From contig OZ250177.1 of assembly GCA_965238135.1 (NCBI GenBank), positions 541,744 through 605,743 on the forward strand: a stretch of 64,000 bases of DNA, in the 5' to 3' direction. The stretch's first letter is position 1, and the number at the start of each line of letters is the position of its first letter. This DNA is from Candidatus Multivorans sp. Its GTDB lineage: Bacteria; Acidobacteriota; Thermoanaerobaculia; Multivoradales; Multivoraceae. The translations under genes and the position numbers were made by a program. Positions 2,120 through 26,398 of this stretch are shown one piece after another. The notes below the pieces were generated by a model, which made no database searches, was not told where the DNA came from, and saw nothing but the letters and a program-made list of their open reading frames with translations.

Positions 2120-2281
2120 CACTCTTGTTTGGTCCCACCGGGTTGGCCCCACCGGGATGGCTCTGCGCCGCCTGGTGGGCGGCGCGCCGGCGGTTGCGCT
2201 TTACTCGGTCTTTACAAACGAAGGGGAGGATCGCGCGCCGTGACCGGAAGTAACGGGGCGCACACCAGAACGAGGGGCACA

Positions 2282-5083
2282 ATGAGAGAAAGCAACGCGA
2301 AGCAGAGAAGCCGGTCAAGTCAGCAAGATCCAATACGGCATGGACGCCGTTTGACCATCCTCGCGCTCGTAGTAGTCATGCACCTGCCGACCCTTTTCGC
2401 GGCTGCCCACGGGCAGACGAACTCGGCACCGGTTGTTCTACTCTCGATCGACGACGTGACCCTCACGGTGGGCTACGGGGCGACACAGTTCGACCTTGCT
2501 ACGCACTTCAATGATCCTGACGGCGATAGCCTCTCGTACGGAGTTTGGCACAGCAACAACGTTGGGGTCCTGTTCTCCGGGAGCACGATGTCTCTGACCG
2601 GCAGGGCAGCCGGCATGAGTACCGTCACAGTGCGAGCCACGGATCCTTCGGACCTCTACGCCGAATTGAGCTTCGCAGCGACGGTCAGAGCGAACACTGC
2701 GCCGGTTGTCCTTCTGCCGATCCCTGACGCGACGCTGACGGTCGGCGGCCGCACCGGGACGGTGGTCCTTTCGTCCCACTTCCAGGATGCTGAGGAGGGC
2801 GACCTGACCTACGCGGCGACATCGGCCGACCCTGCGATAGCGACGGCGACGGTGGCCGAGGGTGTGCTGTCCGTGACTGCCGTTGCGGCAGGAGCGACTA
2901 CCGTCACGGTGACGGCGAGTGACCCGGCCGCGGCGACTTCGGCTCCCGATGTATTCGCGGTGACCGTCGGGTCGCCAGTGAGTGTCACGGTACCGGATGC
3001 CAATCTTCGGACCGCGGTGGAGGCCGCGTTGGCAAGACAGGCCGGCGCGACGATCAACAGTGCCGAGATGGAAGGTCTGGGTCGGCTTGAGTGTGACAGT
3101 TGTGGCATTCAGAACCTCACCGGTTTGGAGTTCGCGACTGGATTGACCGCGCTGGCACTTGGCGGCAACTCGATTACTGACCCGACACCGCTCTCGGGTC
3201 TCACCGGTCTGACGGACCTGGATCTCGGCAGCAACTCGTTGACGGACGTTTCTCCGCTCTCGGGTCTCACCGGCTTGACGGACCTGGATCTCGGCAGCAA
3301 CTCGTTGACGGACGTTTCTCCGCTCTCGGGTCTCACCGGCTTGACGGACCTGGATCTCGGCAGCAACTCGTTGACGGATGTATCTCCGCTCTCGGGTCTC
3401 ACCGGTCTGACGGACCTGGATCTCGGCAGCAACTCGCTGACGGACGTTTCTCCGCTCTCGGGTCTCACCGGCTTGACGGACCTGGATCTCGGCAGCAACT
3501 CGTTGACGGATGTATCTCCGCTTTCGGGTCTCACCGGTCTGACGGACCTGGATCTCGGCAGCAACTCGTTGACGGACGTCACTCCCCTCTCGGGTCTCAC
3601 CGGCTTGACGGACCTGGATCTCGGCGGCAACTCGTTGACGGACGTTTCTCCGCTTTCGGGTCTCACCGGCCTGACGGACCTGGATCTCGCCAGCAACTCG
3701 TTGACGGACGCTTCTCCGCTTTCGGGGCTCACTGCCCTGACCGACGTGGAACTCGACGGCAACTCGCTGACGGACATCTCTCCGCTCTCGAGCCTGACCA
3801 GCCTCAGCCGACTGTATCTGCGCCACAATTGCCTTACGGGTATTCACGCGCTGACGAGCAACACCGGCTTGGGCCAAGGCGACCACATCGCGCTCGAGTG
3901 GAACCCTCTGGTAGCGAGCGCGGTTGCCGGCGATCTTGCCGCGCTGCGGGGCCGCGGAGTGACCGTGCTGGTCTCGGAGACGGCCTCGGTTGAAGTCGTA
4001 GCCCCGCTCAACGTGAGCGCGACCCCCGGTGACGGCGAACTGACATTGACCTGGGACTCCCCTCGAGACCCGGACGACGTAACCGTCTACGAAGTGCGCT
4101 GGCGTTCGGCCACGGGGACGTTCAGCGCCTGGACGATCGTTCCTTGTTCGTCAAAGCGCCGGCACAAGCTGACCGGTCTGGACAACGGCACGGCCTACAC
4201 GGTTGAACTACGGGCCGCAGGCCATGCCGACAACGGCGTCGCGACCGTAGGCCCCACAACAGTGAGGCCGCCCAACAGGGCACCGGTTGTCTCGCTCTCG
4301 ATCCCCGACGTGAGTCTCACAGTCGGCTACGGGGCGACGCAGTTCGACCTGTCGAACCACTTCAGCGACCCGGACGGCGACGAGCTCCTGTTTACAGCCA
4401 GCCCCCCGACTATCGTCACCGCCACCGTCACCGGAAACACGATGACCGTGGCACCGGTCGCAGCGGGCACTGGCGTGGCCACTGTGCGGGCGGCGGATCC
4501 TTCGGGACTCTTCGTTGAGCAGACGTTCAACGTGACCGTAGGCGCCAACGGCGCGCCGGAGGTGTCGCTGGCCATCGACAACATGACGCTCACGGTTGGT
4601 GGCCGGTCGGAAACCGTCACATTGTCAGCGCACTTTCGGGATCCCGAACAGGGGGCGCTGACCTACTCGTCCGTTTCCGCAAGTCCCGCCGTGGCAACCG
4701 CCACGGTATCTGATGGAGTACTGACAGTGAGCGGGGTGTCGGTCGGGACCGCACGGATGACCGTCACGGCGAGTGACCAGGGCGGCGCGACATCGGCTGG
4801 CGCTGTGTTCACGGTGACGGCAAGGGCCGCCGTGAATGTCGAGATACCGGACGCCAATCTCCGCACCGCCGTGGAACAGGAGTTGGGCAAACAGGCGGGG
4901 GCGACGATCACCAGCGCCGAGATGGAACAGATCGTCAGCTTCATGTGTCAAGATTGCAACATTGAAGTCTTGAGTGGTTTGGAGTACGCGACGGGAATGA
5001 CGGACCTCGACCTTGGTGACAATGTTTCAATTGCGGATCTGGCGGCTCTCTCAGGTCTCACTAACCTAACCTTGATTCGCTAG
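2282..5083 (+). CDS. Giant surface protein, 5' portion (signal peptide, 3 cadherin-like/Ig-like DPDGD domains, ~9 LRRs with LRR C-cap, FN3, 2-3 more cadherin-like domains, LRRs); truncated by IS insertion at 5066-5069
   Basis: ATG 2282 preceded by a GAGGGG RBS. Signal peptide RLTILALVVVMHLPTLFAAAHGQ. Repeated ~95-aa domains with a xxHFxDPDGDxLxY motif. 22-aa LRRs LSGLTGLTDLDLGSNSLTDVSP. FN3 segment VYEVRWRS...TAYTVELRA. The reading frame runs straight into the IS terminal inverted repeat, which supplies the stop (LIR*). Confidence 0.85.
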   Translation: MRESNAKQRSRSSQQDPIRHGRRLTILALVVVMHLPTLFAAAHGQTNSAPVVLLSIDDVTLTVGYGATQFDLATHFNDPDGDSLSYGVWHSNNVGVLFSGSTMSLTGRAAGMSTVTVRATDPSDLYAELSFAATVRANTAPVVLLPIPDATLTVGGRTGTVVLSSHFQDAEEGDLTYAATSADPAIATATVAEGVLSVTAVAAGATTVTVTASDPAAATSAPDVFAVTVGSPVSVTVPDANLRTAVEAALARQAGATINSAEMEGLGRLECDSCGIQNLTGLEFATGLTALALGGNSITDPTPLSGLTGLTDLDLGSNSLTDVSPLSGLTGLTDLDLGSNSLTDVSPLSGLTGLTDLDLGSNSLTDVSPLSGLTGLTDLDLGSNSLTDVSPLSGLTGLTDLDLGSNSLTDVSPLSGLTGLTDLDLGSNSLTDVTPLSGLTGLTDLDLGGNSLTDVSPLSGLTGLTDLDLASNSLTDASPLSGLTALTDVELDGNSLTDISPLSSLTSLSRLYLRHNCLTGIHALTSNTGLGQGDHIALEWNPLVASAVAGDLAALRGRGVTVLVSETASVEVVAPLNVSATPGDGELTLTWDSPRDPDDVTVYEVRWRSATGTFSAWTIVPCSSKRRHKLTGLDNGTAYTVELRAAGHADNGVATVGPTTVRPPNRAPVVSLSIPDVSLTVGYGATQFDLSNHFSDPDGDELLFTASPPTIVTATVTGNTMTVAPVAAGTGVATVRAADPSGLFVEQTFNVTVGANGAPEVSLAIDNMTLTVGGRSETVTLSAHFRDPEQGALTYSSVSASPAVATATVSDGVLTVSGVSVGTARMTVTASDQGGATSAGAVFTVTARAAVNVEIPDANLRTAVEQELGKQAGATITSAEMEQIVSFMCQDCNIEVLSGLEYATGMTDLDLGDNVSIADLAALSGLTNLTLIR
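3191..3784 (+). repeat. Nine tandem 66-bp repeats encoding 22-aa leucine-rich repeats; the first eight are >=90% identical at DNA level
   Basis: Unit ctctcgggtctcaccggcttgacggacctggatctcggcagcaactcgttgacggacgtttctccg is reiterated head-to-tail with only a few substitutions per copy. The last unit (3719-3784) is more diverged. Confidence 0.9.
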
Positions 5084-6575
5084 AAACTTCACGCACAGAT
5101 GGCGTTCTGGATGGCAAGGAAATGGTTGGCGACGGCTGGCGAGGCGCCGAGATGGAGCGTCGTCTTTCCTCTCGGTCTCAGCAGGACGGCGGCTCGTCCG
5201 AGGAGCTTGTAGCGGAGGGTGTGGATGCTCTGGAATCGGCGGCGCGTGCGGCGCTTGCGGTTGGTGTTCCTGGCCGGGGCGAGGGTTTGGGCCTGGAAGG
5301 CTCGGGAGAGGTTGAAGGCGAGCACGCTGAGCATCTGCCAGGCGGCGTTGGCGTGCTCTTCGAGGCTGGGCACGCAGTCGAAGGCGAAGCCTCCCTTGAG
5401 TTCGCCGTAGACCTTCTCGTGGCTGCCCCGGCCGTTGTAGAAGTGCCACAGGGTACGGCCCTGAATGCGCTTGTTGGTGAGGATGGCCGAGTACTCGTAG
5501 TGGCCGTCGTCGGGATCGAAGAGGTCGAGCTGGAAGTTCTTCCTGGTCTCGTGCGCGACATGGCGCCGGTAGAGCACGATTCTGCGGACCCGGCCCCAGA
5601 GCGTCTGCCGGGTCTCGTAGCACCAGGTGCGGTCGTCGACGCGCTTCCAGTGCGCCCTGGCGGCGATCTGCTTGAAGTCCAGCCACGGATAGAACGGGGC
5701 CTTGATCGCGTACTCGACGCCTGCGGGGTCGAGGACATCGAGCAGGTCTTCGCGGAAGAAGGCCCCGTCCATGCGGAGTTCCAGGATGCGGCGCTTGCCC
5801 ACGGCGTCGCGGACCTGCCGGATCAGGTCGTCGATGAAGCCGACGGCGGCCTTGCCGTCGTGGATGTTGCCGGGGCGGTTCCGGAGCCGCACGATCTGCC
5901 CCTCCTGGGCCTCGCAGGCGGTAACCGGGTAGTAGCTGGGGGCCTTCCGGCGGTGGGGGTTGTAGCCCCGGAAGGCTCCCTTGACCTTCAGTCCGGTGCT
6001 GACCACCGAACCATCGACGTCGAGGGTGAGCCGGCGACCGCCGGTCCGCCGCAAGACGTTCCCGACCAGCTCCTCGTTGAGCTTCGAGAGCCGTTCCACG
6101 TCCTCGCTGCGGATGCGTTGCATCCAGGCGCTCGCCGTCCGCGGCGCCGGCAGCCTGGAGAGGCCGGCGAAGCGGGCCAGGACGGGGTCGCCCTGCTCGT
6201 GGCGCAGGTGCAGGATGCGCCTTCCTCCGACCAGGATCAGGCCGAGCAGGACCAGGATCATCGGCACGGCGCCGAAGTCGGTGGCGGGGAATCCCGAACC
6301 CACGGCGCGGCGGAGAATGGCGACGAAACCGCTTCGTTTCATGTACTCCCGGACCAGCTCGAGCCCGGCATGAGAGGTAACTTCCTGGCGCCCGGTTCTG
6401 TAATGCGCGTTGCCGTTGACACGGCGCTTCAGATCTGCTCTTCTAGATCGCACTGGGAGTGGCCTTTCGTGGAGGGCGTTCGTGATCTATTCCAACCACG
6501 AGAATACCCCATCCCGCAAGGCCCTCCCGGCCTTCACGTCAGGTCGAACTAACGCATTGTTCTAGCGAATCAAGG
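5070..6575 (-). mobile_element. Intact insertion sequence of the IS4 superfamily (IS701/IS1380-like), 1,506 bp, with 16-bp perfect terminal inverted repeats and a 4-bp target site duplication CTAA
   Basis: Left TIR ccttgattcgctagaa at 5070-5085 is the exact reverse complement of 6560-6575. Flanking direct repeat ctaa at 5066-5069 and 6576-6579. Removing the element and one ctaa restores a continuous LRR reading frame (GLTNLRSLLLFGNAITDLSPLSGLT). Contains a single 454-aa transposase ORF. Confidence 0.9.
5089..6453 (-). CDS. DDE transposase, IS4 superfamily
   Basis: 454-aa ORF occupying the IS interior. Carries the Y(2)R(3)E(6)K signature (YNGRGSHEKVYGELK) characteristic of IS4-like DDE transposases. 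Confidence 0.8.
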   Translation of the reverse strand: MRSRRADLKRRVNGNAHYRTGRQEVTSHAGLELVREYMKRSGFVAILRRAVGSGFPATDFGAVPMILVLLGLILVGGRRILHLRHEQGDPVLARFAGLSRLPAPRTASAWMQRIRSEDVERLSKLNEELVGNVLRRTGGRRLTLDVDGSVVSTGLKVKGAFRGYNPHRRKAPSYYPVTACEAQEGQIVRLRNRPGNIHDGKAAVGFIDDLIRQVRDAVGKRRILELRMDGAFFREDLLDVLDPAGVEYAIKAPFYPWLDFKQIAARAHWKRVDDRTWCYETRQTLWGRVRRIVLYRRHVAHETRKNFQLDLFDPDDGHYEYSAILTNKRIQGRTLWHFYNGRGSHEKVYGELKGGFAFDCVPSLEEHANAAWQMLSVLAFNLSRAFQAQTLAPARNTNRKRRTRRRFQSIHTLRYKLLGRAAVLLRPRGKTTLHLGASPAVANHFLAIQNAICA

Positions 6576-8051
6576 CTAAGGAGCCTGCTGCTTTTTGGCA
6601 ACGCGATCACGGACCTGTCGCCACTCTCGGGCCTCACTGCCCTCGCGGAGTTGGAACTCGACACCAACTCGATCGCGGACGTGTCGCCGCTCTCGGGTCT
6701 GACTGGACTTTCCTCGCTGGATCTCGCCGGAAACCGGATCACGAGTGTGTCGCCGCTCTCCGGTCTTTCCGGCGTTGAGGGGCTGAATCTCTCCACCAAC
6801 GGGATCACGGACGTATCGCCGTTGTCGGGGCTGACCGCCCTGAGACGTCTGTACCTTCGCAACAACGCGATCGCGGACATAGCGGCGCTCTTGGGCCTCA
6901 CGGACCTCAGGCAACTGAACCTCGATGGCAACAGGATCACGAATGTGTCTCCGCTCTCAAGTCTGACGAAGCTCGATCGGCTGGTTCTCCAGAACAACTC
7001 GATCGCGGAGATAGCGCCACTCTCAGGTCTCACCGGCCTTACGCAACTCGACCTCGACGACAACTCGCTCACGGCCCTGGGTGCGCTCTCAGGCCTGACG
7101 AATCTCAGGTGGCTGTATCTTGAAAGGAACTGCTTGACGAGCATCGACGCCTTGACGAGCAATACTGGATTGGGTGCCGGTGACCGCATCGGACTTCGGG
7201 AGAACGCCCTGGACGCTGACTCGCTCGCCAACGGCGTAACCGCACTGCGGGACCGCGGAGCGACCGTCCTAGTGACGGAGGCGCCGACGGCCAGAGTCGG
7301 CGCGCCGGCACACCTGATTGCGATGCCGGGGAACGGGGAGCTAGCTCTGACCTGGCCTGCCCCGCGAGCCGCGGTCGACATCCCGGCTTATGAGGTGCGC
7401 TGGCGTTCGGCCATCGGGACCTTCAGCGATTGGTCGACCGTTCCGTGCTCGTCGAAGGGTCGGCACCTGCTGAGTGGTCTAGTCAACGGCACGACATACA
7501 CGGTGGAACTACGGGCGGCTGGCCATGTCAGTAATGGCGTGAAGAGCGTTACCGCCACACCCACCAGCACGGCCGTTGTCGAGCCGGTGGAGACGATGTT
7601 GTGGGCAGCTTTGACGACACCGGGTGAGGTACCGTCGATATACGACGACACCTTTGAGTGGCTAGTCTCGGCGAGAGGAGCTTGGCCGATGCTGGTAGCG
7701 GAGGCGACCGTTTACCAGCCGCCGGTATACCTCCGTGAACTTGAGATTGCTCAGGGTCAGGAGCGAGGTTCCCACGTTGAGATTGCGCTCTCGACAACAT
7801 CGACGGGTTTGTCGTCGCTACCACCGTGGATGTTCGGTTGGCGAGTCCTGTTCTCGGTTCACGATGTCGGGCTGAACGAAGCGCTCCTCGACGAGGACGG
7901 CTTACCGCTTGTTCAAGCACAACTGAATGCTCGCGGGGAGGGCCGGTTCGCTGGAACGCTCGAGGGCGAGCTCGACACGTTCTGGGCCGCGATCTCGGAT
8001 AGCGGCGACTACGACTGGAGTGAGGGCCTGTACGTTGAACTGAGGCCCTGA
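6576..8051 (+). pseudogene. 3' portion of the IS-disrupted giant surface protein gene (LRRs, LRR C-cap, FN3, C-terminal domain of unknown function)
   Basis: Frame is open from the first base after the right IS end (LRSLLLFGNAITDLSPLSGLTALAELELDTNSIADVSPLS...). It continues the LRR register of the upstream fragment and has no signal peptide or start of its own. It repeats the module order of the upstream part (LRR - LYLxxNCLTxIxALTSNTGLGxGD cap - FN3 YEVRWRS...TYTVELRAAGH). Confidence 0.85.
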
Positions 8052-8527: not shown

Positions 8528-11500
8528 ATGAGTTGGACGTTTGGTCGCGCGGCATTGCGTGTGGCGGCGGGCTGCGTGTTGGTCTTTGGGGGGACAGGGC
8601 TTGCGTTCGGGCAGATCGTGATCAACGAGTTCATCCAGGACCCGACCCAGGTCAACGACAACGCCGGAGAGTGGTTGGAGCTGTACAACGCGGGCGGTAC
8701 GCGGGTCGACATCAATGGCTGGAAGCTCGATGACGACGCCACGCTGACCGGAGACCACACGATAAACAACGGCGGAAGCCTGTGGATCGAGATCGGTGGC
8801 TACCTGGTCCTGGGAATCAACGACGACACTGGGACCAACGGCGGCGTGACGGTCCACTACGAGTGGAGCAGCTTCGGTCTGACCCAAGGCTCGGACAAGA
8901 TCATCCTGCTCAACGCCACGAACGCCGTGCAGGACCGGGTCGAGTACGACGACGGCGCCACCTTCCCGGACGCCAGCGGCGCTGCCGCGGCCCTCAGGAG
9001 CCCGGACCTGCCCAACGACGTGGGCCGCAATTGGTGCGAGGCGACGACGCCCTACGGCGACGGTGACAAGGGCACCCCCGGCGCCGCGAACGACTGTCCG
9101 CCTTTGATCCCCTCAATCGACTGTTCCGGTGGGGTTGCAATTCACGTGATTCAGGGCAGCGGCGCCGCTAGCCCCTGTACGGAGCAAGACGGGATGGCAA
9201 CCACGAACGACAACATCGTCACCGCGGTCGGTGCCGGTGGCTTCTTCATCCAGACGCCGACGGCGAGCAGCGACAACGATGTCGACACGTCGGACGGCAT
9301 CTTCGTCCTGTACGACGGTACGACGATGATCAACGTCGGCGACCAGGTAGATGTCACCGGAACGGTCGAGGAGTTCTTCGCCTTCACGCGGATCGATGCG
9401 ACTACGTCGGTTACCGACGCCTCGGTGACGATCGATGCCAGCAACCAGACGTTGCCCGCGCCGGTCGAGTTCGGCGCGACGGTGCCTTCGCCCGACCCCG
9501 CCAGTCCAAGTTGTGCGATCGAATACGAGTGCTACGAGGGCATGCGGATTCGGGTCGCGACGGGCACGACAAGCACGCCGAGCCAGTCCTTCGGGGGGAG
9601 GCAGCCGGACCCGGTGGCCGAGATGTTCGTCACCCCGACCTCGTCACGAGCTTTTCGCGAAAAGGGCGTCGAGTACCCGGGTTTGACCTCAAATCCCGGT
9701 ATTCCGGTGTGGGACGGCAATCCGGAGCTGTTCGAACTGGACCCCGACAAGCTGGGGCTGCCGAACGCGTCCTGGGTTCCGGGGACGACGTTCTCCGCCA
9801 CCGGTGTGCTTGGCTATGACTTCGGCGACTATGAGATTTGGCCGACCGAACTGAGGCGCCTCACCGCGGCGCCTCCGCTGCCGCATCCGGTGCGAGTGAG
9901 AACAGCGGGTGAGGTCTCTGTCGGCTCGCTGAACATGTTGAACCTGAATGACGAATCGTCGAACTACAACACCAAGCTCAGCAAGCTGTCGCGCTACGTC
10001 CGTCAGGTGCTCAGGTCGCCCGACATCCTCGGAGTGCAGGAGGTGAACACGATCACGGCGCTCACGGGCCTCGCCGCCAAGATCCGGGCGGACGATCCGA
10101 GCGTCAACTACGCCGCCTACCTGGAGGAAGGGCCAATAGCCGACAGAATTGACGTCGGCTTCCTCGTGCGCTCGGGGGTTACTGTCCAATCGGTGACCCA
10201 GCTCAACAAGACCGAGACCTTCCTCAACCCGACGACGAACATGAACGATATCCTGAACGACCGGCCACCGTTGCTGCTGGAGGCGGCCGTTGAGGGCATT
10301 GAATTCTCGGTCCTCGTCATCCACAACCGCTCGCTTAGAACCTTCGAGACCGAGCGAGTCCAGGCGAAGAGACTGGCGCAGGCGCAGTCCGTCGCCCGCA
10401 TCGCGCAGTCGCGCCAGAGCTCGAAGCTGGTCATCGTGGGGGACTACAACGCGTACCAGTTCACCGATGGCTACGTCGACGTTGTGGGCCAGATCTCCGG
10501 CAACGTGACGCCGAGCGAGAACCTTCGCTCAGGACCGGATCTGGTCACCCCGAATCTCGTCAATCTGATTGACCGTGTGCCCGAACCGCAGCGCTACTCC
10601 TACATCTTCGAAAACAACATGCAGGTGCTCGACCACGCTCTCGTGAACCAGGAGATGGTTGGAAGCGTCGTCGGGATCACCTATGCCCGCGGCAATGCGG
10701 ACGCCCGCCGCTCAGTGGAGGAGGACAATCCGGACTCGGCTCTATTCGCTTCCGACCACGACGGTTTCGTGGTCTATCTGTCGGCGCCGGGGAATCCCGC
10801 TCCGCCGGCCAGTATCAATCCGGACATCGGCGGTGGCGGCGAGCCCGAGCCGGATCCCGAGGCCGACCTCGACCTCGACGCGGAGAGCCAGATCGTCTCG
10901 GCGAGCAAGGTCCGGTACAGCGTCAACGTCGAGAACGCCGGGCCGGGTACCGCTCGGAACGTCGTGGTCACGAGTACCTTCTCAGGTGCGGCCGTCTCGG
11001 TCGTGGCGACGACCTCCGGCTGCGACGAGGATCCGGATGGTGTGCCCGACTGCACCTTGGGCGACATCGCGGCAGGCGACTCGGCCTCCTTCACCATCGA
11101 TGTCGATACCGGTGGGGCAAGCGAATCCTCGCTCAGGTACAACGGTTCCGCCGGCAGCGACACGACGGACCCGGCGCCCACGGACGATGACGACTCCGTC
11201 GTTCAGCCGCTTGGGCCGCCGAACGCGCCGTCCGATCTCACCGCGACCGCGATCAGCTCGACGGCGATCGAGGTCCGCTGGCGGGACAACTCGCGCGTGG
11301 AGACCCAGTTCGATGTCTTCTTGCAAGGTCCGGGCGACCCCAGGCCGCGGTTGTTCGGGTCCGTGCCGGCGAACAGGACATCTCTGGTCGTCGACGACTT
11401 GGTGCCAAGCGTCACGTACGACTTCGCGGTCGAGGCGCGGAACGGGCTGCTCCGCTCCGGGCGGACGCCGACGTCGACCGCGACCACGTGGGACGAGGCG

Positions 11501-12952
11501 GATCTGCGCATTGAGGCGGAAGGCCTGATCGTCTCGGAGGAGCTCGTCCGCTACACCGTCAGCGTCAGCAACGCAGGTCCCGAAGATGCAGCGACTGTCG
11601 TCGTGACCAGTGCTCTGATGGCGGCGGAAGGCGCTTTCGAGACTTCGACGTCCGGCTGTCGCGAGGATCCGGGTGGGGTGCCGGAGTGCAGTCTGGACGA
11701 CATCGACGTCGGAGAGTCGGAGTCGTTCACGATCGATGTCCGGATCGAGGCGGCGAGCCGGAACTCGCTCACGTACGGCGGCGCTATCGGCGACGCGGCG
11801 GATCCGAGAACTGACGCACGCATGGTCGAGATGACACTGCCTCTTGGTCGGCCCGAAGCGCCGTCCCATCTCGAGGCCTCCGCGGTCGGCGGGATGGAGG
11901 TCGAACTCCGGTGGCGGGACAACTCGGACAGAGAGACGGGATTCGGCGTCTTCCTGCAGGGACCGGGCGACTTGAAGCTGAGGATGATCGGAACGGCGCC
12001 GGCGAACACGACCTCAATGGTCGTCAACGAACTCGTACCGACCGTCACCTACAGCTTCGCCGTGGAGGCTCTGAACGGAGCGCTTCGTTCGGAGCGCACG
12101 CCCGAGGCCACGGCGACCACCTGGACCGCGGATGCGGCCCGATGCGGCGAAGAGGACGCTCTGTGCGTCGGGGCTTTTCAGGTGGAGGTCGAGTGGGACG
12201 ACGGCAAGGGCCGGATGGGGCGGGGATTCGCCGAGCGCCTGACGGCGGATGCCGGAGACTTCTGGTTCTTCCATCCCGCCAACATCGAGCTCGTGGTCAA
12301 GGTGCTGAATGGCTGCGCGATGAACGACCACTACTGGGTCTACGCCGCCGGCTTGACGGATGTTGGAGTGACGATGACGGTGCGCGATCTCCGTAACGGC
12401 GTCGAGAAGAGCTGGACGAACCCCCTCGGCAGGCGGTTCAGGCCGATCACGGATTCCTTGGCGTTCGCCACCTGCGACAGCGGACCGAGCGTGACCACTC
12501 AGAGCCGGAGCGTGCTGAGCGGCGCCCCGCGGGGCCGGGGCGAAGAGCTGTACGAGGCCAGCCTGAGCGCTGCCGACCTGATCGACTCGGCCAGCAGTGC
12601 TTGCACTGCGGGCGACGCGACCCTCTGCCTGATGGGCTCACGTTTCGAAGTGCGGGCCGACTGGGAAGTCGGTGGTCAAAGCGGCTTCGCAACCGCCATT
12701 CCGCGCACCCCGGATACGGGGATGTTCTGGTTCTTCAGCTCGGACAACGTCGAGCTGGTGGTCAAGGTGCTCGACGGCTGTCGAGAGAACGGTTACCGAT
12801 GGGTGCTCATGGGTGGCTTGACCGACGTTGGAGTGGAGGTAACGGTGACCGACAGCGAGTCGGGCAAGGCGAAGATGTACCGGAATCTCGAGGGGACGCC
12901 GTTTGCGACGATGTTCGACGTGACCGCCTTTGCCTGCAGCGCGGGGCCGTAG
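8528..12952 (+). CDS. Secreted multidomain extracellular nuclease: signal peptide, lamin-tail domain (LTD), EEP-family nuclease domain, two DUF11-like + FN3 modules, and two copies of a C-terminal Cys-containing domain of unknown function
   Basis: GGGGGG RBS then ATG. Signal peptide ALRVAAGCVLVFGGTGLAFGQ. LTD motif IVINEFIQDP...GEWLELYN...VDINGWKLDD. Endonuclease/exonuclease/phosphatase motifs (VGSLNMLNLND..., GVQEVNT, VIVGDYNAYQF, SDHDGFVV). Duplicated DUF11-like units (VRYSVNVENAGPGTARNVVVTS..., VRYTVSVSNAGPEDAATVVVTS...), each followed by an FN3 (IEVRWRDNS...TYDFAVEA). Two ~115-aa C-terminal repeats with four conserved Cys (C...LC...FWFF...VELVVKVL(N/D)GC...). Architecture resembles ExeM/NucH-type extracellular nucleases. 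Confidence 0.8.
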   Translation: MSWTFGRAALRVAAGCVLVFGGTGLAFGQIVINEFIQDPTQVNDNAGEWLELYNAGGTRVDINGWKLDDDATLTGDHTINNGGSLWIEIGGYLVLGINDDTGTNGGVTVHYEWSSFGLTQGSDKIILLNATNAVQDRVEYDDGATFPDASGAAAALRSPDLPNDVGRNWCEATTPYGDGDKGTPGAANDCPPLIPSIDCSGGVAIHVIQGSGAASPCTEQDGMATTNDNIVTAVGAGGFFIQTPTASSDNDVDTSDGIFVLYDGTTMINVGDQVDVTGTVEEFFAFTRIDATTSVTDASVTIDASNQTLPAPVEFGATVPSPDPASPSCAIEYECYEGMRIRVATGTTSTPSQSFGGRQPDPVAEMFVTPTSSRAFREKGVEYPGLTSNPGIPVWDGNPELFELDPDKLGLPNASWVPGTTFSATGVLGYDFGDYEIWPTELRRLTAAPPLPHPVRVRTAGEVSVGSLNMLNLNDESSNYNTKLSKLSRYVRQVLRSPDILGVQEVNTITALTGLAAKIRADDPSVNYAAYLEEGPIADRIDVGFLVRSGVTVQSVTQLNKTETFLNPTTNMNDILNDRPPLLLEAAVEGIEFSVLVIHNRSLRTFETERVQAKRLAQAQSVARIAQSRQSSKLVIVGDYNAYQFTDGYVDVVGQISGNVTPSENLRSGPDLVTPNLVNLIDRVPEPQRYSYIFENNMQVLDHALVNQEMVGSVVGITYARGNADARRSVEEDNPDSALFASDHDGFVVYLSAPGNPAPPASINPDIGGGGEPEPDPEADLDLDAESQIVSASKVRYSVNVENAGPGTARNVVVTSTFSGAAVSVVATTSGCDEDPDGVPDCTLGDIAAGDSASFTIDVDTGGASESSLRYNGSAGSDTTDPAPTDDDDSVVQPLGPPNAPSDLTATAISSTAIEVRWRDNSRVETQFDVFLQGPGDPRPRLFGSVPANRTSLVVDDLVPSVTYDFAVEARNGLLRSGRTPTSTATTWDEADLRIEAEGLIVSEELVRYTVSVSNAGPEDAATVVVTSALMAAEGAFETSTSGCREDPGGVPECSLDDIDVGESESFTIDVRIEAASRNSLTYGGAIGDAADPRTDARMVEMTLPLGRPEAPSHLEASAVGGMEVELRWRDNSDRETGFGVFLQGPGDLKLRMIGTAPANTTSMVVNELVPTVTYSFAVEALNGALRSERTPEATATTWTADAARCGEEDALCVGAFQVEVEWDDGKGRMGRGFAERLTADAGDFWFFHPANIELVVKVLNGCAMNDHYWVYAAGLTDVGVTMTVRDLRNGVEKSWTNPLGRRFRPITDSLAFATCDSGPSVTTQSRSVLSGAPRGRGEELYEASLSAADLIDSASSACTAGDATLCLMGSRFEVRADWEVGGQSGFATAIPRTPDTGMFWFFSSDNVELVVKVLDGCRENGYRWVLMGGLTDVGVEVTVTDSESGKAKMYRNLEGTPFATMFDVTAFACSAGP

Positions 12953-17471: not shown

Positions 17472-19823
17472 ATGGACAAGCGAGATCTCTCAGAGCGCGA
17501 TATCTGCACGAAGTTCATCACGCCCGCCCTGCGCGGGGCCGGATGGGACGAGATGTCACAGCTTCGCGAGGAGGTGAGCTTCACCGATGGCCGCATCACC
17601 GTGCGAGGAAAGATGGTTTCGCGCGGAAAGCGGAAGCGCGCCGACTACATCCTCGACTTCAAGCCGAACATTCCGCTCGCGGTGATCGAGGCCAAGGACA
17701 ATACCCACAGCGTGGGCGACGGCATGCAGCAGGCCTTGGACTACGCCGGGACCCTGAACATCCCGTTCGCGTTCTCGTCGAACGGCGACGGCTTCGTGTT
17801 CCACGACCGCACGGGGGCCAGTACGCCCCGCGAGACGAACCTGCCGCTCGACGCGTTTCCGTCGCCGGCCGATCTGTGGGCGCGCTATCGGGCCTGGAAG
17901 GGCCTGACGCCGGAGGCCGAGAGGATCGTCCTCCAGGACTACTTCGAGGACCGTGGCGGCAAGACGCCGCGCTACTACCAGATCAACGCCGTCAACGCGA
18001 CGATCGAGGCCATCTCCAAGGGGCAGGACCGCATCCTGCTCGTCATGGCCACGGGCACGGGCAAGACGTACACCGCTTTCCAGATCATCTGGCGGCTGTG
18101 GAAGGCGCGGCGCAAGAAGCGCATCCTGTTCCTTGCCGACCGCAACGTGCTCATCGACCAGACGATCGCGAACGACTTTCGCCCGTTCGGCGGGGCCATG
18201 ACCAAGCTCTCGCGCGACATCGACGCCTCCTTCGAGGTGTATCTCGGCCTCTATCAGGCGATCACGGGGCCGGACGACCACCAGAAGGCGTTTCGGAAGT
18301 TCTCGCCGGAGTTCTTCGATCTGATCGTGATCGACGAATGCCACCGGGGAAGTGCAGCTGACGATTCGGCGTGGCGCGAGATCCTCGAGTACTTCTCCTC
18401 CGCAACCCAGATCGGCCTCACCGCCACGCCGAAGGAGACGAAGTATGTCTCCAACATCGACTACTTCGGGGAGCCCGTCTTCTCCTACTCCCTGAAACAG
18501 GGCATCCGCGACGGCTTCCTCGCGCCCTACAAGGTGGTCAAGGTCCACATCGACCGGGACGTCGAAGGCTACCGTCCGGAAAAGGGCCAGCTTGACCGCG
18601 ACGGAGAGGAGGTTGAGGACCGCATCTACAATGTCAGGGACTTCGATCGCACGCTCGTCATCGACGGGCGGACGAAGCTGGTGGCTGAGAAGGTCACGAC
18701 GTTTCTGCGGGAGAGCGGCGACCGCTTCCAGAAGGCGATCGTTTTCTGCGTCGATCAGGAGCACGCCGCCCGGATGCGCCAGGCGCTCGTCAACGAGAAT
18801 GCCGATCTTGTCGAGCGCAACGCACGGTATGTCATGCGGATCACGGGCGCGGACGAGGCTGGAAAGGCCGAACTGGGGAACTTCATCGATCCCGAATCGA
18901 GTCACCCGGTGCTCGTCACCACGTCGCGCCTGCTGTCCACCGGCGTCGATGTCCAGACGTGCCGGGTCATCGTGCTCGACCGGGAGGTAGGCTCGATGAC
19001 CGAGTTCAAGCAGATCGTCGGCCGCGGCACCCGAGTGCATGAGGACACCGGGAAGTTCTACTTCACGCTCATCGACTTCCGGAACGCGAGCGGCCACTTC
19101 GCGGACCCGGACTTCGACGGCGAGCCGGTGCAGATCTACGAACCAGGCGTGGGGGATCCGATCCTTCCTCCCGATACGCCCGAGGATGAAGACCTCGGTG
19201 AAGAGGAGATGGCCGCTATCGGGGGCGGCAACGGCCTGCCGCCCACGGAGACGCATCCCCTGAAGATCTTTGTTGATGGCATCGAGGCGACCATCGTCGC
19301 CGAGCGGGTCGAGTACCTCGACGAGCACGGCAAGCTCATCACCGAGTCGCTACGCGACTTCACGAGGAAGGCGCTGCGCAGGCGCTTCGCGAGCCTGGAC
19401 GACTTCCTGAACCGTTGGAATGCTGCGGAGCGCAAGCAGGCGATCATCGACGAGATGGCGGCCGAGGGCCTGCCACTTACTGCGATTGTCCCTGAATTGG
19501 GCAAGGATCTCGACCCCTTCGATCTCGTCTGCCACATCGCCTTCGACGTCAAGCCGCTAACCCGCCGGGAACGGGCCGAGAACGTCAGGAAACGGGACGT
19601 GTTCACGAAGTACGGAGGACAGGCCCGCGCCGTGCTCGACGCACTGCTCGACAAGTACGCCGACGAGGGCGTCATCAATCTCGACGACGCCAACGTGCTC
19701 AGGATTCCGCCGCTCGACAGTCTCGGCACCCCGGTCGAGCTCGTCCGCGCCTTCGGCGGAAAGCCCGGCTTCGAGCGGGCCGTGCGCGATCTTCAGTCGG
19801 CGCTCTACAGGGAGGTCGCCTAA
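17472..19823 (+). CDS. hsdR: Type I restriction-modification system, restriction (R) subunit HsdR
   Basis: N-terminal HsdR_N PD-(D/E)xK nuclease motif (DYILDF...IEAKD). SF2 helicase motifs I LVMATGTGKT, II DECHR, III LTATP, VI QIVGRGTR. GGGAGG RBS upstream. Confidence 0.9.
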   Translation: MDKRDLSERDICTKFITPALRGAGWDEMSQLREEVSFTDGRITVRGKMVSRGKRKRADYILDFKPNIPLAVIEAKDNTHSVGDGMQQALDYAGTLNIPFAFSSNGDGFVFHDRTGASTPRETNLPLDAFPSPADLWARYRAWKGLTPEAERIVLQDYFEDRGGKTPRYYQINAVNATIEAISKGQDRILLVMATGTGKTYTAFQIIWRLWKARRKKRILFLADRNVLIDQTIANDFRPFGGAMTKLSRDIDASFEVYLGLYQAITGPDDHQKAFRKFSPEFFDLIVIDECHRGSAADDSAWREILEYFSSATQIGLTATPKETKYVSNIDYFGEPVFSYSLKQGIRDGFLAPYKVVKVHIDRDVEGYRPEKGQLDRDGEEVEDRIYNVRDFDRTLVIDGRTKLVAEKVTTFLRESGDRFQKAIVFCVDQEHAARMRQALVNENADLVERNARYVMRITGADEAGKAELGNFIDPESSHPVLVTTSRLLSTGVDVQTCRVIVLDREVGSMTEFKQIVGRGTRVHEDTGKFYFTLIDFRNASGHFADPDFDGEPVQIYEPGVGDPILPPDTPEDEDLGEEEMAAIGGGNGLPPTETHPLKIFVDGIEATIVAERVEYLDEHGKLITESLRDFTRKALRRRFASLDDFLNRWNAAERKQAIIDEMAAEGLPLTAIVPELGKDLDPFDLVCHIAFDVKPLTRRERAENVRKRDVFTKYGGQARAVLDALLDKYADEGVINLDDANVLRIPPLDSLGTPVELVRAFGGKPGFERAVRDLQSALYREVA

Positions 19824-19826
19824 GAG

Positions 19827-21278
19827 ATGTCCGTCAGCACTCTGGTCAAGTCCATTCAGAACATCATGCGCCAGGACGCTGGGGTGGACGGCGACGCGCA
19901 GCGCATCAGCCAACTGTGCTGGATGTTCTTCCTCAAGATCATCGACGACCAGGACCAGGAACTCGAGCTCTTTGACGACGGCTACGGCTCGCCCGTCCCT
20001 GCAGATCTGCGATGGCGGAGCTGGGCGGCCGACCCGGAAGGCATCACCGGCGAAGAGCTGCTCGACTTCGTCAACGGCGATCTCTTTCCACAGCTCAAGG
20101 AACTCCCGCCCAGGGCAGGCCCTCGCGCGAACGTCGTGCGCGACGTGTTCGAGGACGCCTACAACTACATGAAGTCTGGTCAGTTGATGCGGCAGGTGGT
20201 CAACAAGATCAACAGCATCGACTTCAACAACCTGGCCGCCCGCCAGCACTTCGGCGACATCTACGAGCAGATTCTGAACGACCTGCAATCGGCCGGCAAC
20301 GCGGGTGAGTACTACACCCCGCGGGCCGTGACCACCTTCATGGCCCGGATGATCGACCCGAAGCCGGGCGAGATCCTGTTCGACCCGGCTTGCGGCACGG
20401 GCGGGTTCCTCACCTGCGCTATGCAGCACATGCGCGAGCGGTATGTGAAGCGGCCCGAGGACGAGGCGAGCATGCAGGTTTCGCTGCTCGCGGTGGAGAA
20501 GAAGCCGCTTCCCCACATGCTCGCCGTCACGAACATGCTGCTGCACGGCATCGAGGATCCGTCCTTCCTGCGCCACGACAACACCTTGGCGCGGCCCTAC
20601 ACCTCCTGGGGCCGCGACGAGCGCGTGGACATCGTGCTGACCAATCCGCCGTTCGGCGGCAAGGAGGAGGATGGCATTGAGTCGAACTTCCCACAGCACT
20701 TCCGAACGCGAGAGACGGCGGACCTGTTCCTGGCCCTGATCATCCGGCTACTCAAGCCTGGAGGCAGGGCCGCCGTCGTCCTGCCAGACGGCTCCCTGTT
20801 CGGCGAAGGCGTCAAGACGCGGCTCAAGGAGCACCTGATGAAGGAGTGCAACCTTCACACCATCGTGCGCCTGCCGAACTCGGTGTTTCGCCCCTACGCC
20901 TCGGTCGGAACGAACCTGCTGTTCTTCGAGAAGGGCGAGCCGACGAGGGACATCTGGTTCTGGGAGCATCTCGTACCCGAAGGCCAGAAGGCCTACTCCA
21001 TGACACGGCCCGTACGGGTGGAGCATCTCGACGACTGCGCCGATTGGTGGGGTGGGACGGAGCGCACCGGCCGGGAGGAGGGTGGCCGGGCCTGGAAGGT
21101 GAGCGCCGACGAGATCAAGGCGCGCGGCTACAACATCGACATCAAGAACCCTCATACCGAGGAGGAGGACCTTGGCGATCCCGAGACGCTTCTGGAGGAA
21201 CTGACGAGCGCCGAGGCTGAGGTGCTGTCGGTGCGGAGTGAGTTGAGGCGAATTCTGACTGAGGCGCTCCTACGGTGA
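19827..21278 (+). CDS. hsdM: Type I R-M N6-adenine DNA methyltransferase subunit HsdM
   Basis: Motif I FDPACGTGGFL and motif IV LTNPPFGG; HsdM N-terminal domain. Start is 4 nt after the hsdR stop. Confidence 0.92.
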   Translation: MSVSTLVKSIQNIMRQDAGVDGDAQRISQLCWMFFLKIIDDQDQELELFDDGYGSPVPADLRWRSWAADPEGITGEELLDFVNGDLFPQLKELPPRAGPRANVVRDVFEDAYNYMKSGQLMRQVVNKINSIDFNNLAARQHFGDIYEQILNDLQSAGNAGEYYTPRAVTTFMARMIDPKPGEILFDPACGTGGFLTCAMQHMRERYVKRPEDEASMQVSLLAVEKKPLPHMLAVTNMLLHGIEDPSFLRHDNTLARPYTSWGRDERVDIVLTNPPFGGKEEDGIESNFPQHFRTRETADLFLALIIRLLKPGGRAAVVLPDGSLFGEGVKTRLKEHLMKECNLHTIVRLPNSVFRPYASVGTNLLFFEKGEPTRDIWFWEHLVPEGQKAYSMTRPVRVEHLDDCADWWGGTERTGREEGGRAWKVSADEIKARGYNIDIKNPHTEEEDLGDPETLLEELTSAEAEVLSVRSELRRILTEALLR

Positions 21279-23044
21279 ACGCCGACCGCTTGCTCGCCCT
21301 CTACGACCGCGTGGCGGACGCGCCGGACGCCATCGGCCGCCTGAGCCGGTTCGTGCTTGACACCGCCGTGCGCGGCAAGCTCGTGAAGCAGGATCCGGCG
21401 GATGAACCGGCATCAGAGTTGCTGCGACGGATCGACGCCGAGAAAGCGCGAATGGTCAAGGCGGGAGAGATCAGAAAGCCCCGCAATCTGTCGACCGGTG
21501 AGGACTTGGTGGCACTCTTTGAGGTTCCGGCCAAATGGTGCTGGCGGCGCCTCGATACAATAGGAGCTATCGTTGGTGGTGGCACGCCATCGGCTGGCGA
21601 TCCTGCGAACTTCTCGGAGCCCGGAGAGGGCGTCGCGTGGTTGACACCCAAGGACCTCGGCAGCCTCGGAAGCTCATACATCGGCCGCGGTAGCCGCGAT
21701 CTCTCGGGAAAGGGCTTTCGTTCGTCATCGGCCACTCTCATGCCGACTGGGACTGTCCTCTTTTCAAGTCGAGCGCCGATCGGGTACGTCGCGATCGCTG
21801 CAAACCCGGTTGCGACGAATCAGGGGTTCAAATCCGTCGTCCCCTATGTTTCTGATTGTTCGAGGTACATAGCGCTGGTGATGCAGGCGTTTGGGCCTGC
21901 AATCGACGCCATGGCGTCAGGGACCACCTTCAAAGAGGTTTCGGGAAGGACTGTCGCCGGCGTTCCCTTCCCTCTCCCGACGCTCGCCGAGCAGCACCGC
22001 ATCGTCGCCAAGGTCGATGAACTCATGGCGCTGTGCGACCGTTTAGAGGAAGCTCGCGTCTCCCGGGAGGGCGCCCGCGACCGGCTGACGAGGGCCAGCC
22101 TGTCGCGCTTGGTTGCGGCAGAGGCAGAAGAAGCGCAGGCAGCTACGTTCCGGGTTCTTGCGCGTTTCACAGTCGATGCCCTTCCCGCGCTGACGGCCCG
22201 CGCCGACCAAGTCCAGGGCTTTCGCCAGACCATTCTCGGCCTCGCGGTCCGGGGAAGGCTGGTCGAGCAGGATCCCGCTGACAAACCGGCGTCGGAACTC
22301 CTGAAGCGGATCGCCGCCGAAAAGGCGCGAATGGTGGGGGCGGGGGCGATCCGGAAGCCACGCAGTCTGCCGAACGGTGAGGACTTGGCAGCACCGTTCG
22401 GGATTCCGGACACCTGGTGCTGGGACCGCCTCGATGCCATTGGAGCAATCGTCGGTGGTGGCACACCGTCTGCGAGCGATCACAAGAACTTTGCGCAATC
22501 GGGAGAGGGTATTCCGTGGCTCACGCCGAAAGACCTCGGCGGCCATGAAGACCTGTACATCGAACGCGGCAGCCGCGATCTGTCGACGAGTGGTCTGCGA
22601 TCGTCCTCGGCGACACTCATGCCTGCGGAAACAGTCCTTTTCAGTAGCCGTGCGCCGATAGGGTACGTGGCAATCGCGGCGAACCCAGTTGCCACCAATC
22701 AGGGCTTCAAGTCCATCGTCCCGTACGTGCCGGGCTGCTCCAGATTCATCGCCTTGGCGATGAGGGCGTTCGGGCCTGAGATCGCTGCCAGTGCTCCGGG
22801 GACGACATTCAAGGAGGTGTCAGGAAAGCTCGTCGCTGGCGTTCCCTTTCCTCTCCCGCCACTCGCCGAGCAGCACCGCATCGTCGCCAGGGTCGACGAA
22901 CTCATGGCGCTGTGCGACGGGCTGGAGGGAAGTCTTGCGACTGCGGACGACACGCGCGGCCGCCTGCTTGACTCTCTCCTCGATGAAGCGTTGGCCGCCG
23001 ACTGGGCCGCCACGGTCCAACACGTCGCGGAGTCTCAGCCATGA
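21275..23044 (+). CDS. hsdS: Type I R-M specificity subunit HsdS with two near-identical target-recognition halves
   Basis: Overlaps the hsdM stop (ATGA). Two ~290-aa halves, each with a TRD and the conserved LAEQHRIVA(K/R)VDELMALCD(R/G)LE spacer; halves are ~75-80% identical to each other. Confidence 0.88.
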   Translation: MNADRLLALYDRVADAPDAIGRLSRFVLDTAVRGKLVKQDPADEPASELLRRIDAEKARMVKAGEIRKPRNLSTGEDLVALFEVPAKWCWRRLDTIGAIVGGGTPSAGDPANFSEPGEGVAWLTPKDLGSLGSSYIGRGSRDLSGKGFRSSSATLMPTGTVLFSSRAPIGYVAIAANPVATNQGFKSVVPYVSDCSRYIALVMQAFGPAIDAMASGTTFKEVSGRTVAGVPFPLPTLAEQHRIVAKVDELMALCDRLEEARVSREGARDRLTRASLSRLVAAEAEEAQAATFRVLARFTVDALPALTARADQVQGFRQTILGLAVRGRLVEQDPADKPASELLKRIAAEKARMVGAGAIRKPRSLPNGEDLAAPFGIPDTWCWDRLDAIGAIVGGGTPSASDHKNFAQSGEGIPWLTPKDLGGHEDLYIERGSRDLSTSGLRSSSATLMPAETVLFSSRAPIGYVAIAANPVATNQGFKSIVPYVPGCSRFIALAMRAFGPEIAASAPGTTFKEVSGKLVAGVPFPLPPLAEQHRIVARVDELMALCDGLEGSLATADDTRGRLLDSLLDEALAADWAATVQHVAESQP

Positions 23045-24189
23045 CCCGCGTCCCGGTATCGTCCGAGATGCTGCGCTGGGCCTGCGAGCGCTCCGGTCGC
23101 GACGTCGCGGACCTCGCGGCCCGTGTTCCTCAGCTTCCGGCTTGGGTCCGAGGCGAGAGACAGCCGACGCTCAAACAGTTGGAGAGGCTGGCCACGGCTA
23201 CGCGGACGCCATTCGGTTATCTGTTCCTGACCGCGCCGCCGGAGGAGCGTCTTCCGGTTCCCGACTTTCGTACGGTGTGGGGTGCTTTCCGGGCGAGACC
23301 GACCCCCGACCTGCTGGACACGCTGTACAGCATGCAACGTCGCCAGGAGTGGCTCCGGGAGAGCTTGGTCGAGAGCGACGTGGGACCGCTGTCGTTCGCT
23401 GGAAGCGCCCGCCTGACGGATGACCCGGCCTCCGTGGGTCGGGAGATGCGGCGAGCACTCGGTCTCGATGACGGCTGGGCTGCGGAAGTGAGCACCTGGC
23501 AAGAGGCTGTGAGGGAGCTTCGCCGGGCCATTGAGCAGGTCGGCGTGATGGCGGTGATCAACGGAGTAGTCGGGAACAACACGAGCCGGAAGCTGAGCGT
23601 GGAGGAGTTTCGCGGCTTCGCGCTCACGGATCCTTACGCCCCGTTGATCTTCGTGAATGGCGCTGACGCCAAGTCGGCGCAGATGTTCACTCTCGCCCAC
23701 GAGTTGGCCCACATCTGGCTTGGCACGGAGGGGGTCTCCGGCTTCGAGTCCCTGTTCCCCGGCGGCTCGGACGTGGAGGACTGGTGCAACGCGGCCGCGG
23801 CTGAACTCCTCGTCCCTTCGGAGGAAGTGGCACCTCGTTGGAACGAGGTGAAGAGGGGACCAAGGCCGTTCGAGACGCTCGCCCGGGCGTTCAAGGTGAG
23901 TCCGGTTGTTGCCGCCCGCCGGGCCCTGGACCTGAGTCTTGTCGACCGCGACGCCTTTCGCGACTTCTACAAGGGGTACGTCAAGCGCGATCTCGCGAGT
24001 GGCGCGAGTTCCACCGGGGGCAACTTCTACAACAACCAGAACACCCGTGTCGGCGAGCTGTTCGCGTCCCACGTGCTCCGTGCGGCGATGGAGGGCCGAA
24101 TCGGGTTCAAGGAAGCCTACGACCTGACTGGCTTGCGTGGAGGAACCTTCCAGAAGTACGCGAGGCGACTGGGGGTGAATCTCCCATGA
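23041..24189 (+). CDS. HTH-domain plus ImmA/IrrE-family zinc metallopeptidase (COG2856-like)
   Basis: Overlaps the hsdS stop. Central HEXXH motif HELAHIWLG within an ImmA/IrrE-like region; N-terminal helix-turn-helix-like segment. Confidence 0.75.
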   Translation: MTRVPVSSEMLRWACERSGRDVADLAARVPQLPAWVRGERQPTLKQLERLATATRTPFGYLFLTAPPEERLPVPDFRTVWGAFRARPTPDLLDTLYSMQRRQEWLRESLVESDVGPLSFAGSARLTDDPASVGREMRRALGLDDGWAAEVSTWQEAVRELRRAIEQVGVMAVINGVVGNNTSRKLSVEEFRGFALTDPYAPLIFVNGADAKSAQMFTLAHELAHIWLGTEGVSGFESLFPGGSDVEDWCNAAAAELLVPSEEVAPRWNEVKRGPRPFETLARAFKVSPVVAARRALDLSLVDRDAFRDFYKGYVKRDLASGASSTGGNFYNNQNTRVGELFASHVLRAAMEGRIGFKEAYDLTGLRGGTFQKYARRLGVNLP

Positions 24190-25895: not shown

Positions 25896-25924
25896 CTGGA
25901 GATTCGTCCTCTTGCTGCTTCTTG

Positions 25925-26398
25925 CTAGTTGTGCGGTGTGGCGGGGTCCGCCGCGTCGCTGTCTTCTGACGTGGCGGCGGATCTGCCGGCCGCGGGGTGC
26001 TGGAGGGCGACGAGTATACCGAGCAGGCCGAGCAGGATCATGGCCCCCGGGGCCAGAGTCGGCATGGCGCCTCCCAGGCTCTCGTTGACCAGTTCGAGGC
26101 CGCTCGAGTTCGGATGAAGTTCCCGCTCGAACTCGACGTTGGACTGGAAGTGGAAGTAGACGCCGAGCAGACCGGCTGGGACGTAGGCGACTAGCAGAAT
26201 CCGGAAAGTCCGCACTGCCGCGACGGACGGACGCGCTGCCAACCACAAGCTGGCTGTGGTGCCAGCTGCCAGGAGCACGAGCGGGATCCACTGCTTGCTG
26301 TCCTCGTAGTGATCCAACAGGTACAACTCGGCAAGCAGACCGAGTGCCCCGAAGAGCAGGATGTACAACAGGTACCGTCGCCAGCCCTCGATGTTCAC
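25925..26398 (-). CDS. Small integral membrane protein (4 predicted TM helices), co-oriented upstream of the ComEA-like gene
   Basis: 157 aa with hydrophobic stretches YLLYILLFGALGLLAELYLL, WIPLVLLAAGTTASLWLAA, ILLVAYVPAGLLGVYF, AMILLGLLGILVAL. Gene-like GC3. Confidence 0.6.
   Translation of the reverse strand: MNIEGWRRYLLYILLFGALGLLAELYLLDHYEDSKQWIPLVLLAAGTTASLWLAARPSVAAVRTFRILLVAYVPAGLLGVYFHFQSNVEFERELHPNSSGLELVNESLGGAMPTLAPGAMILLGLLGILVALQHPAAGRSAATSEDSDAADPATPHN

Follow-up and report, generated by a model that had tools for sequence, protein, structure and literature searches.

We analyzed a 64,000-nucleotide stretch of DNA (contig OZ250177.1, positions 541,744 to 605,743; hereafter the window) that contains a plus-strand gene for a leucine-rich repeat (LRR) protein. 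The gene is built from two modules, A and B, each of which has an LRR domain. The LRR domain of module A includes a tandem array of near-identical 66-bp units, which is our main subject, and the LRR domain of module B is interrupted by an insertion sequence (IS) of the IS1380 family. The coordinates of these features are collected in Table 1.

Tandem Repeats Finder (TRF) reports 3188-3804 as a repeat with a 66-bp period, 9.3 copies, 90% matches, zero indels and a score of 982. Unit starts fall at 3188+66n, in frame with the plus-strand open reading frame (ORF) 2129-5083, and each unit of 66 bp is 22 codons long and encodes the peptide PLSGLTGLTDLDLGSNSLTDVS or a close variant of it. Among the first eight units (core units, n = 8), pairwise nucleotide identity ranges from 89.4% to 100% with a mean of 93.8%, and core units 3 and 5 are identical in sequence. 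Identity to the core units falls to about 80% in the ninth unit (starting at 3716) and to about 58% in the tenth (starting at 3782). An earlier note, made from the sequence alone, had described eight consecutive units that are at least 90% identical; this is nearly exact, the lowest pair falling just short of that value, and the coordinates it gave for the array are correct except that the start (3188) was off by at most 3 bases.

The uniformity of the core units is greater than the encoded peptide calls for. The eight core units differ from one another at just 11 of their 66 columns, with synonymous changes at 6 of the 11. When we ran a null simulation of 2000 trials, in which the 22-residue peptide was fixed and synonymous codons were drawn from the gene's own usage, we found a mean pairwise identity of 71.9% (standard deviation 1.5, maximum 77.3), as compared to the 93.8% observed. 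Because the simulated value lies so far below the observed one, the uniformity of the core units exceeds what chance or conservation of the peptide would give, which bears out the claim of the earlier note that the units are far more alike than a 22-residue LRR needs. Within the array, exact direct repeats extend up to 103 bp at an offset of 66, 85 bp at an offset of 132 and 73 bp at an offset of 198. RecA-dependent exchange in E. coli needs a minimum of roughly 25 bp, and the exact repeats of the array are far longer. The core units fall into two types and follow one another as a b b a b a b c; the types match units 1-3 of one related locus (L003) and unit 1 of another (L084). The first window unit matches L084 unit 1 at 64 of 66 positions, and the last unit, the 'DAS' unit, looks positionally conserved. 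Unit-specific synonymous variants are present across the in-frame array, and the variable residues of the unit sit at LRR 'x' positions 10 and 15.

To compare copy number, we used assembled syntenic loci, and the series comprises six lineages. In the syntenic loci, an FG-GAP/ASPIC gene and a TPR gene lie upstream of the LRR gene and, where the locus reaches that far, an LTD-nuclease gene lies downstream. Every syntenic locus has the same N-cap unit and two anchor units equivalent to window units 9 and 10, and these anchor units are 93.2-93.9% identical to those of the window in L084, L003, L004 and L006. Between the same anchors there is 1 core unit in L004 (Sarcotragus foetidus sponge metagenome, LXNI), 6 in L003 (ENA ERZ25067264, a 74.5-kb contig), 7 in L005 (ENA ERZ25766727, a 2.03-Mb contig with several 1-nt indels in the region), 8 in both L084 (ENA/NCBI ERZ28763718, a 4.94-Mb contig) and L002 (ENA ERZ25068833, a near-identical copy of L084 from another sample), and 9 in L006, which is recorded as Candidatus Multivorans sp. 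The number of units therefore can change at this locus, as the earlier note had proposed. Within-array identity is 84% in L084, 83.5% in L006 and 89.6% in L003, so that the window array is the most uniform. L084 has eight units like the window, but its units are positionally orthologous to those of the window only at the edges. The higher identity within the window array than in the orthologs (84-90%) agrees with the recent expansion or homogenization that had been suggested from the sequence. We also looked in the orthologs for the opposite pattern, the same units with comparable divergence between them in relatives, and did not see it.

A change of a single unit is seen between L006 and L084, a strain comparison of the kind that the earlier note had called for. 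L006 equals L084 with one 66-bp unit added; apart from this unit, the two are 100% identical over more than 1 kb that begins at unit 3. The added unit of L006 consists of the body of unit 5 joined to the 3' end of unit 4, and this hybrid structure fits one misaligned (unequal) exchange. When we aligned L084 6001-8592 with L006 10001-12660, which are otherwise near-identical loci, the gene's 5' part was 86.5% identical and units 1-2 were 87.9% identical, and identity was 100% from unit 3. The jump in identity at unit 3 suggests that recombination between lineages had a breakpoint within the LRR array.

We also searched for further loci. A cluster look-up yielded the intact 1431-residue ortholog P0122. 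An alignment scan of Joint Genome Institute (JGI) metagenomes with the N-cap returned only the L004 contig, and a protein search that used the N-terminus outside the LRRs brought up no more than the loci already known and a single decayed copy, L085. In L005 (7553-8102), there are 1-nt insertions in seven core units, GACGG has become GACGGG in three units, and the downstream 2.9 kb is frame-intact. Either the consensus is wrong within the repeat only, or a frameshift has spread from unit to unit in a pseudogene.

Table 1. Features of the LRR gene and of the element that interrupts it (window coordinates; Ig, immunoglobulin; FN3, fibronectin type III).
Feature	Position	Strand	Evidence
LRR gene, 5' part, up to the IS	2282..5069	+	ORF list, exact protein match on source contig, Pfam
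Signal-peptide-like N-terminal segment: basic stretch, hydrophobic LTILALVVVMHLPTLFAAAHG, then QT	2282..2413	+	Read from translation
Two Ig-like (cadherin-like, DPDGD-containing) domains, module A	2432..2923	+	Pfam He_PIG residues 102-186, Big_2 residues 210-265 (ORF 2129-5083)
LRR N-terminal cap and two irregular first repeats (3056-3121, 3122-3187)	2993..3187	+	Pfam LRR_EndoS residues 289-413; AlphaFold strands at model residues 42-44, 64-66
Core array: eight near-identical 66-bp units (22-residue LRRs), variable part	3188..3715	+	TRF, unit table, identity matrix
Anchor units 9 and 10, diverged, at orthologous positions in every related locus	3716..3847	+	Unit identity matrix
LRR C-terminal cap, module A (approximate boundaries)	3848..3990	+	Translation; model helices at residues 316-331 after last LRR strand
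FN3 domain, module A	4001..4219	+	Pfam fn3 residues 625-697, E 1.1e-8
Module B: two Ig-like domains and LRR N-cap	4274..5047	+	Pfam Big_9 residues 716-803
First regular LRR of module B (start only, cut by IS)	5048..5069	+	Reconstruction, unit table
Target-site duplication CTAA, left copy	5066..5069	.	Sequence
IS1380-family insertion sequence, 1506 bp	5070..6575	-	Inverted repeats, Pfam, NCBIfam
Transposase ORF	5089-6453	-	Pfam DDE_Tnp_1_4 3.3e-35; NCBIfam NF033539
Target-site duplication CTAA, right copy	6576..6579	.	Sequence
Module B LRR array, remainder	6580..7151	+	TRF 6657-6837 and 6861-7106; Pfam LRR_4 2.7e-38
Module B C-cap, FN3 (about 7332-7547), C-terminal domain (7560-8048), stop codon	7152..8051	+	Pfam fn3 residues 228-299 of ORF 6651-8051

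The gene caller's product on the source contig is a 933-residue protein (P0001) that starts at the ATG at 2282, and the ORF that contains it ends with a stop codon at 5081-5083, inside the IS end and five codons past 5069. Pfam matches on this 5' ORF are LRR_4 (2e-52), LRR_8 (2.5e-38), fn3, Big_9, He_PIG and Big_2. The N-terminal segment is invariant in 4 orthologs from M33 on. The protein is probably secreted, the signal-peptide-like N-terminal segment being the one feature of the translation that points to its exposure at the surface. Two minus-strand ORFs lie antisense to the array, 2438-3886 (482 residues, with a repetitive translation) and 3109-3828; we rejected them as most likely by-products of a GC-rich repeat, because the plus frame has Pfam domains, a third-position G+C content (GC3) of 0.75 and a match to the gene called on the source contig.

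When we aligned the gene with itself by BLAST, 2412-3204 matched 4266-5061 at 66.3% nucleotide identity; judged from this sequence match, module B arose long ago when module A was duplicated within the gene. The module B array, with 5048-5069 included, has nine diverged 66-bp units whose pairwise identity is 61.4% at the nucleotide and 51.5% at the amino-acid level, so the distal LRRs are indeed much more diverged than the core array, as had been noticed. The module B array undergoes the same process in other lineages: L005 has a homogenized 66-bp mini-array in module B (9527-9776, 3.8 copies, 90% identity), and the L003 product P0015 (8878-11469) has, by a count from the translation, about twice the module B repeats of the window, for which this count gave ten. 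The order of the restored protein is a signal-peptide-like N-terminus, then two Ig-like domains, LRR and FN3, this set occurring twice, and a C-terminal region. The C-terminal region of about 163 residues (7560-8048) has no Pfam or NCBIfam match. It is kept in the orthologs P0004, P0031 and P0122.

The element that splits the gene shares with the IS1380 family a family-level transposase score, terminal inverted repeats that start with CC and a 4-bp target duplication. Its transposase scores 226.4 bits against NF033539 (IS1380 family; cut-off 180) and covers model positions 5-418 of 419, and perfect 16-bp terminal inverted repeats (CCTTGATTCGCTAGAA) are present at 5070-5085 and 6560-6575. A length of 1506 bp is at the short end of the range of this family. 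We found no further copies of the IS within the window. As we computationally remove the IS and one CTAA, 2129-5069 and 6580-8051 fuse in frame into a 1470-codon ORF, and the restored junction sits inside a regular LRR (…LSGLTNLRSLLLFGNAITD…). The uninterrupted target site CTCACTAACCTAAGGAGACTG is present in L005, and there is a similar empty site in L004. The earlier note had assigned the distal LRRs to the same gene and had not reported the interruption. Because the frame is restored when the IS is removed, and because an intact ortholog and empty sites exist, that assignment is right historically; the distal LRRs now lie in a separate ORF (6651-8051). The annotation should read one IS-disrupted gene and not two separate LRR proteins. 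The IS insertion into the second LRR domain is probably recent and separate from the history of the array, and the interrupted gene yields at most the truncated 933-residue protein.

The gene is damaged in most of its relatives as well. In L084, we found the only intact gene, which encodes the 1431-residue ortholog P0122 on the syntenic contig. L002 differs from L084 by a single 1-nt gap, and the name of its contig suggests 2x coverage. In L004 (1727-3243), there is a related IS that is 78% identical, has a broken transposase and occupies a different module B site from that of the window element. In L006 (12660-15907), there are two other transposase-encoding insertions and a 316-bp deletion. 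In L005 (6267-6700), a transposase fragment lies at about codon 17, and there are also frameshifts in the array. L003 has a frameshift, and its contig name suggests 4x coverage. In L085 (8491-11693), scattered gene fragments lie between IS3-type elements. Mobile elements are thus found at different sites of the LRR gene in four lineages, the window included, and this pattern of damage agrees with a genome rich in IS elements and a gene that is either dispensable or selected against.

To place the repeats among LRR classes, we compared the unit with known LRR motifs and structures. Residues 8-18 of the unit are LTDLDLGSNSL, which gives the core LxxLxLxxNxL with a 22-residue period that is recognized by Pfam LRR_4 and LRR_8. 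Among solved structures, the best sequence matches are to the Chlorobium Roco LRR 5il7 (7e-93), internalin A 2omx (4e-86), other internalins and SDS22/PPP1R7 (3e-27). The repeats belong to the 22-residue internalin/SDS22-type LRR class. An AlphaFold model of 2960-4300, made without an alignment, has twelve three-residue beta-strands at an exact 22-residue spacing, with a predicted local distance difference test (pLDDT) score of about 77-93 over the LRR region. In the same model a helical cap follows the LRRs and the FN3 domain is poorly modeled. On this model, the window array would form a 12-strand solenoid with a uniform concave face, and the arrays of related lineages would form solenoids of 5 to 13 strands. 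We also considered membership in the Listeria internalin family and rejected it: the ortholog P0122 scores 341 bits against the NCBIfam model internalin_A (cut-off 1600) and 285 against internalin_H (cut-off 1050), and its similarity to the Listeria class 1 internalins is limited to the LRRs. The reconstructed protein ends ...SEGLYVELRP, and we see no LPXTG motif near this C-terminus and no GW anchor in the translation.

Taken together, these data suggest that the first LRR domain contains an in-frame block of 22-residue LRRs whose interior evolves in concert through the gain and loss of whole units, and we put the probability of this reading at roughly three in four. As we picture it, misaligned homologous exchange or replication slippage would take place between units that share long exact stretches, and it would add or remove whole 66-bp units and spread variants. 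Each gain or loss of a unit would preserve the reading frame, and the edge units would remain orthologous. In the window lineage, the interior would recently have been rebuilt from two unit types into eight near-identical repeats; the a b b a b a b c pattern, with its match to the leading units of L003 and L084, suggests that this rebuilding occurred by duplication of the leading units.

Several observations weigh against concerted evolution through whole-unit gain and loss. The arrays of L084 and L002 are identical although they come from different samples, so the array is not hypermutable on that time scale. The best-matching units between genomes are 97-98% identical, as compared to 86-93% for the flanks, so that some of the uniformity may be older than the split or may come from constraint on the unit. 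The L005 count is taken from a region with many 1-nt indels. The gene is disrupted by the IS here and is damaged in most relatives, which makes any functional importance of repeat number conjectural. Finally, the L084 count equals the window count, and homogenization at a constant number is possible for the lineage of the window.

This last point leads to the alternative that survives best, in which eight units are ancestral and gene conversion at constant copy number merely made them uniform in the lineage of the window. That L084 and L002 likewise have eight core units between the same anchors, and that the first and last units of the window seem positionally conserved, would both be expected if this were so. 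However, loci with 1, 6, 7 and 9 units indicate that the number of units changes here, and the a-b alternation, with identical units 132 bp apart, suits block duplication at least equally well. We consider constant-number conversion an unlikely account of the window array.

A programmed contingency locus, in which repeat number switches at high frequency within a population to vary a host-exposed surface, appears improbable. The long perfect direct repeats, the signal-peptide-like N-terminus, the variable residues at the LRR 'x' positions and the origin of relatives from sponge hosts are all features that such a locus might have. However, simple-sequence phase variation works through short units that shift the reading frame or promoter spacing, and the 66-bp units keep the frame, so that their gain or loss alters length and gives no on/off switching. 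In addition, the arrays are the same in the two samples that yielded L084 and L002, there is no dedicated recombinase or cassette store nearby, and the gene is inactivated in most lineages.

Even less probable is an old stable array whose nucleotide identity is held by selection on codon usage or on mRNA or DNA structure. The high identity of best unit matches between species, relative to the flanks, is what such selection could produce; yet codon usage alone predicts only about 72%, the orthologous array of L084 is far less uniform (84%) though its gene is intact, and the variation of copy number among lineages already contradicts stability. The least probable explanation is an assembly artifact, in which the array owes its length or uniformity to collapse, to expansion or to polishing of the consensus. 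Assemblers often make errors in repeats, and the L005 array has many 1-nt indels. However, the window comes from one 4.45-Mb contig that, to judge by its name, is circular and covered about 24x; the reads behind it would then have been much longer than the 0.6-kb array, which makes collapse unlikely. In addition, the window array is in frame with unit-specific synonymous variants, and the arrays of relatives are in frame, one of them being recovered identically from two samples.

Concerted evolution of the array could also be set in a broader picture, which we regard as doubtful. This would be a fast-evolving host-interaction gene of sponge-associated Acidobacteriota, in which unit gain and loss, recombination within the array and repeated independent IS hits (four lineages, four sites) jointly adjust a surface LRR ligand, or do away with it, as host recognition or phagocytosis exerts pressure on it. 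The LRR domain may have a role in host or particle binding, and repeat number may be relevant to that binding. If the broader picture is true, the locus would parallel, in a symbiont, the variation of surface antigens in pathogens.

The relatives and the surroundings of the gene give the context of the locus. The closest species-representative genome with a syntenic gene is recorded as Candidatus Multivorans sp. (Acidobacteriota, Thermoanaerobaculia), and one ortholog, L004, comes from a sponge metagenome as listed above. Distant relatives of the Ig-like N-terminus are found in Gemmatimonadota, Poribacteria, Chloroflexi and Acidobacteriota metagenome-assembled genomes, several of which are named after sponge hosts. 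The adjoining gene (8528-12952) encodes a 1474-residue protein with lamin-tail and endonuclease/exonuclease/phosphatase domains and two DUF11-FN3 pairs, and it is kept beside the LRR gene in L003, L004, L084 and L005. Further along the window, a type I restriction-modification system (R, M and S subunits) and then an IrrE-like M78 peptidase gene occupy 17472-24189. A 180-bp tandem repeat (25297-25626, 1.8 copies, 80% identity) lies in the minus-strand ORF 25263-26585, which has helix-hairpin-helix motifs. A SMODS nucleotidyltransferase gene (30410-31384) and an S_4TM effector gene (26866-27828) have between them an ORF without a family match, and this pairing (26866-31384) looks like a CBASS-type defense system. 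Elsewhere in the window there are an AAA_15 ATPase, PQQ dehydrogenases and an RND efflux pump.

That tandem repeats evolve in concert is textbook knowledge, and a strain-dependent number of LRRs is already documented in bacteria (see YopM below); the locus is a well-documented further example, not a new kind of system. The recombination breakpoint between lineages inside the array and the repeated independent IS hits are somewhat less ordinary. The locus offers a well-delimited case of a bacterial LRR domain that evolves in concert and changes in copy number, in which conserved anchors make the counting of units unambiguous and a one-unit duplication has been caught between near-identical strains. 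The array could also serve as a strain marker.

Among known systems, Yersinia YopM comes close in one respect. YopM isoforms vary by strain in the number of tandem LRRs while the flanks are conserved (PMC4161239), and the window protein is likewise a bacterial LRR protein that gains or loses entire repeats without a change of frame. The comparison made here concerns the LRRs. YopM has 20/22-residue repeats of the bacterial short class, is a type III secreted effector and is without Ig or FN3 modules. With the Listeria internalins (InlA, InlB and InlH) and the SDS22 class, the window protein shares the 22-residue period, a consensus of the LxxLxLxxNxIxDIxPL type and an N-cap before the repeats. 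In contrast to the Listeria internalins, it has a duplicated Ig-Ig-LRR-FN3 arrangement, and its host is Gram-negative and Acidobacteriota-like.

Eukaryotic-like proteins with LRR, FN3 and cadherin-like domains are a recognized trait of sponge symbionts, and the window protein has the same repertoire of domains. These proteins form a loose descriptive class and not a defined family, and the window protein would be placed with them by its domains. For the biology of sponge symbionts, the locus presents a eukaryotic-like protein whose solenoid ranges from 5 to 13 repeats and whose gene is often knocked out by mobile elements, a combination that bears on the question of changing versus relaxed selection on such proteins.

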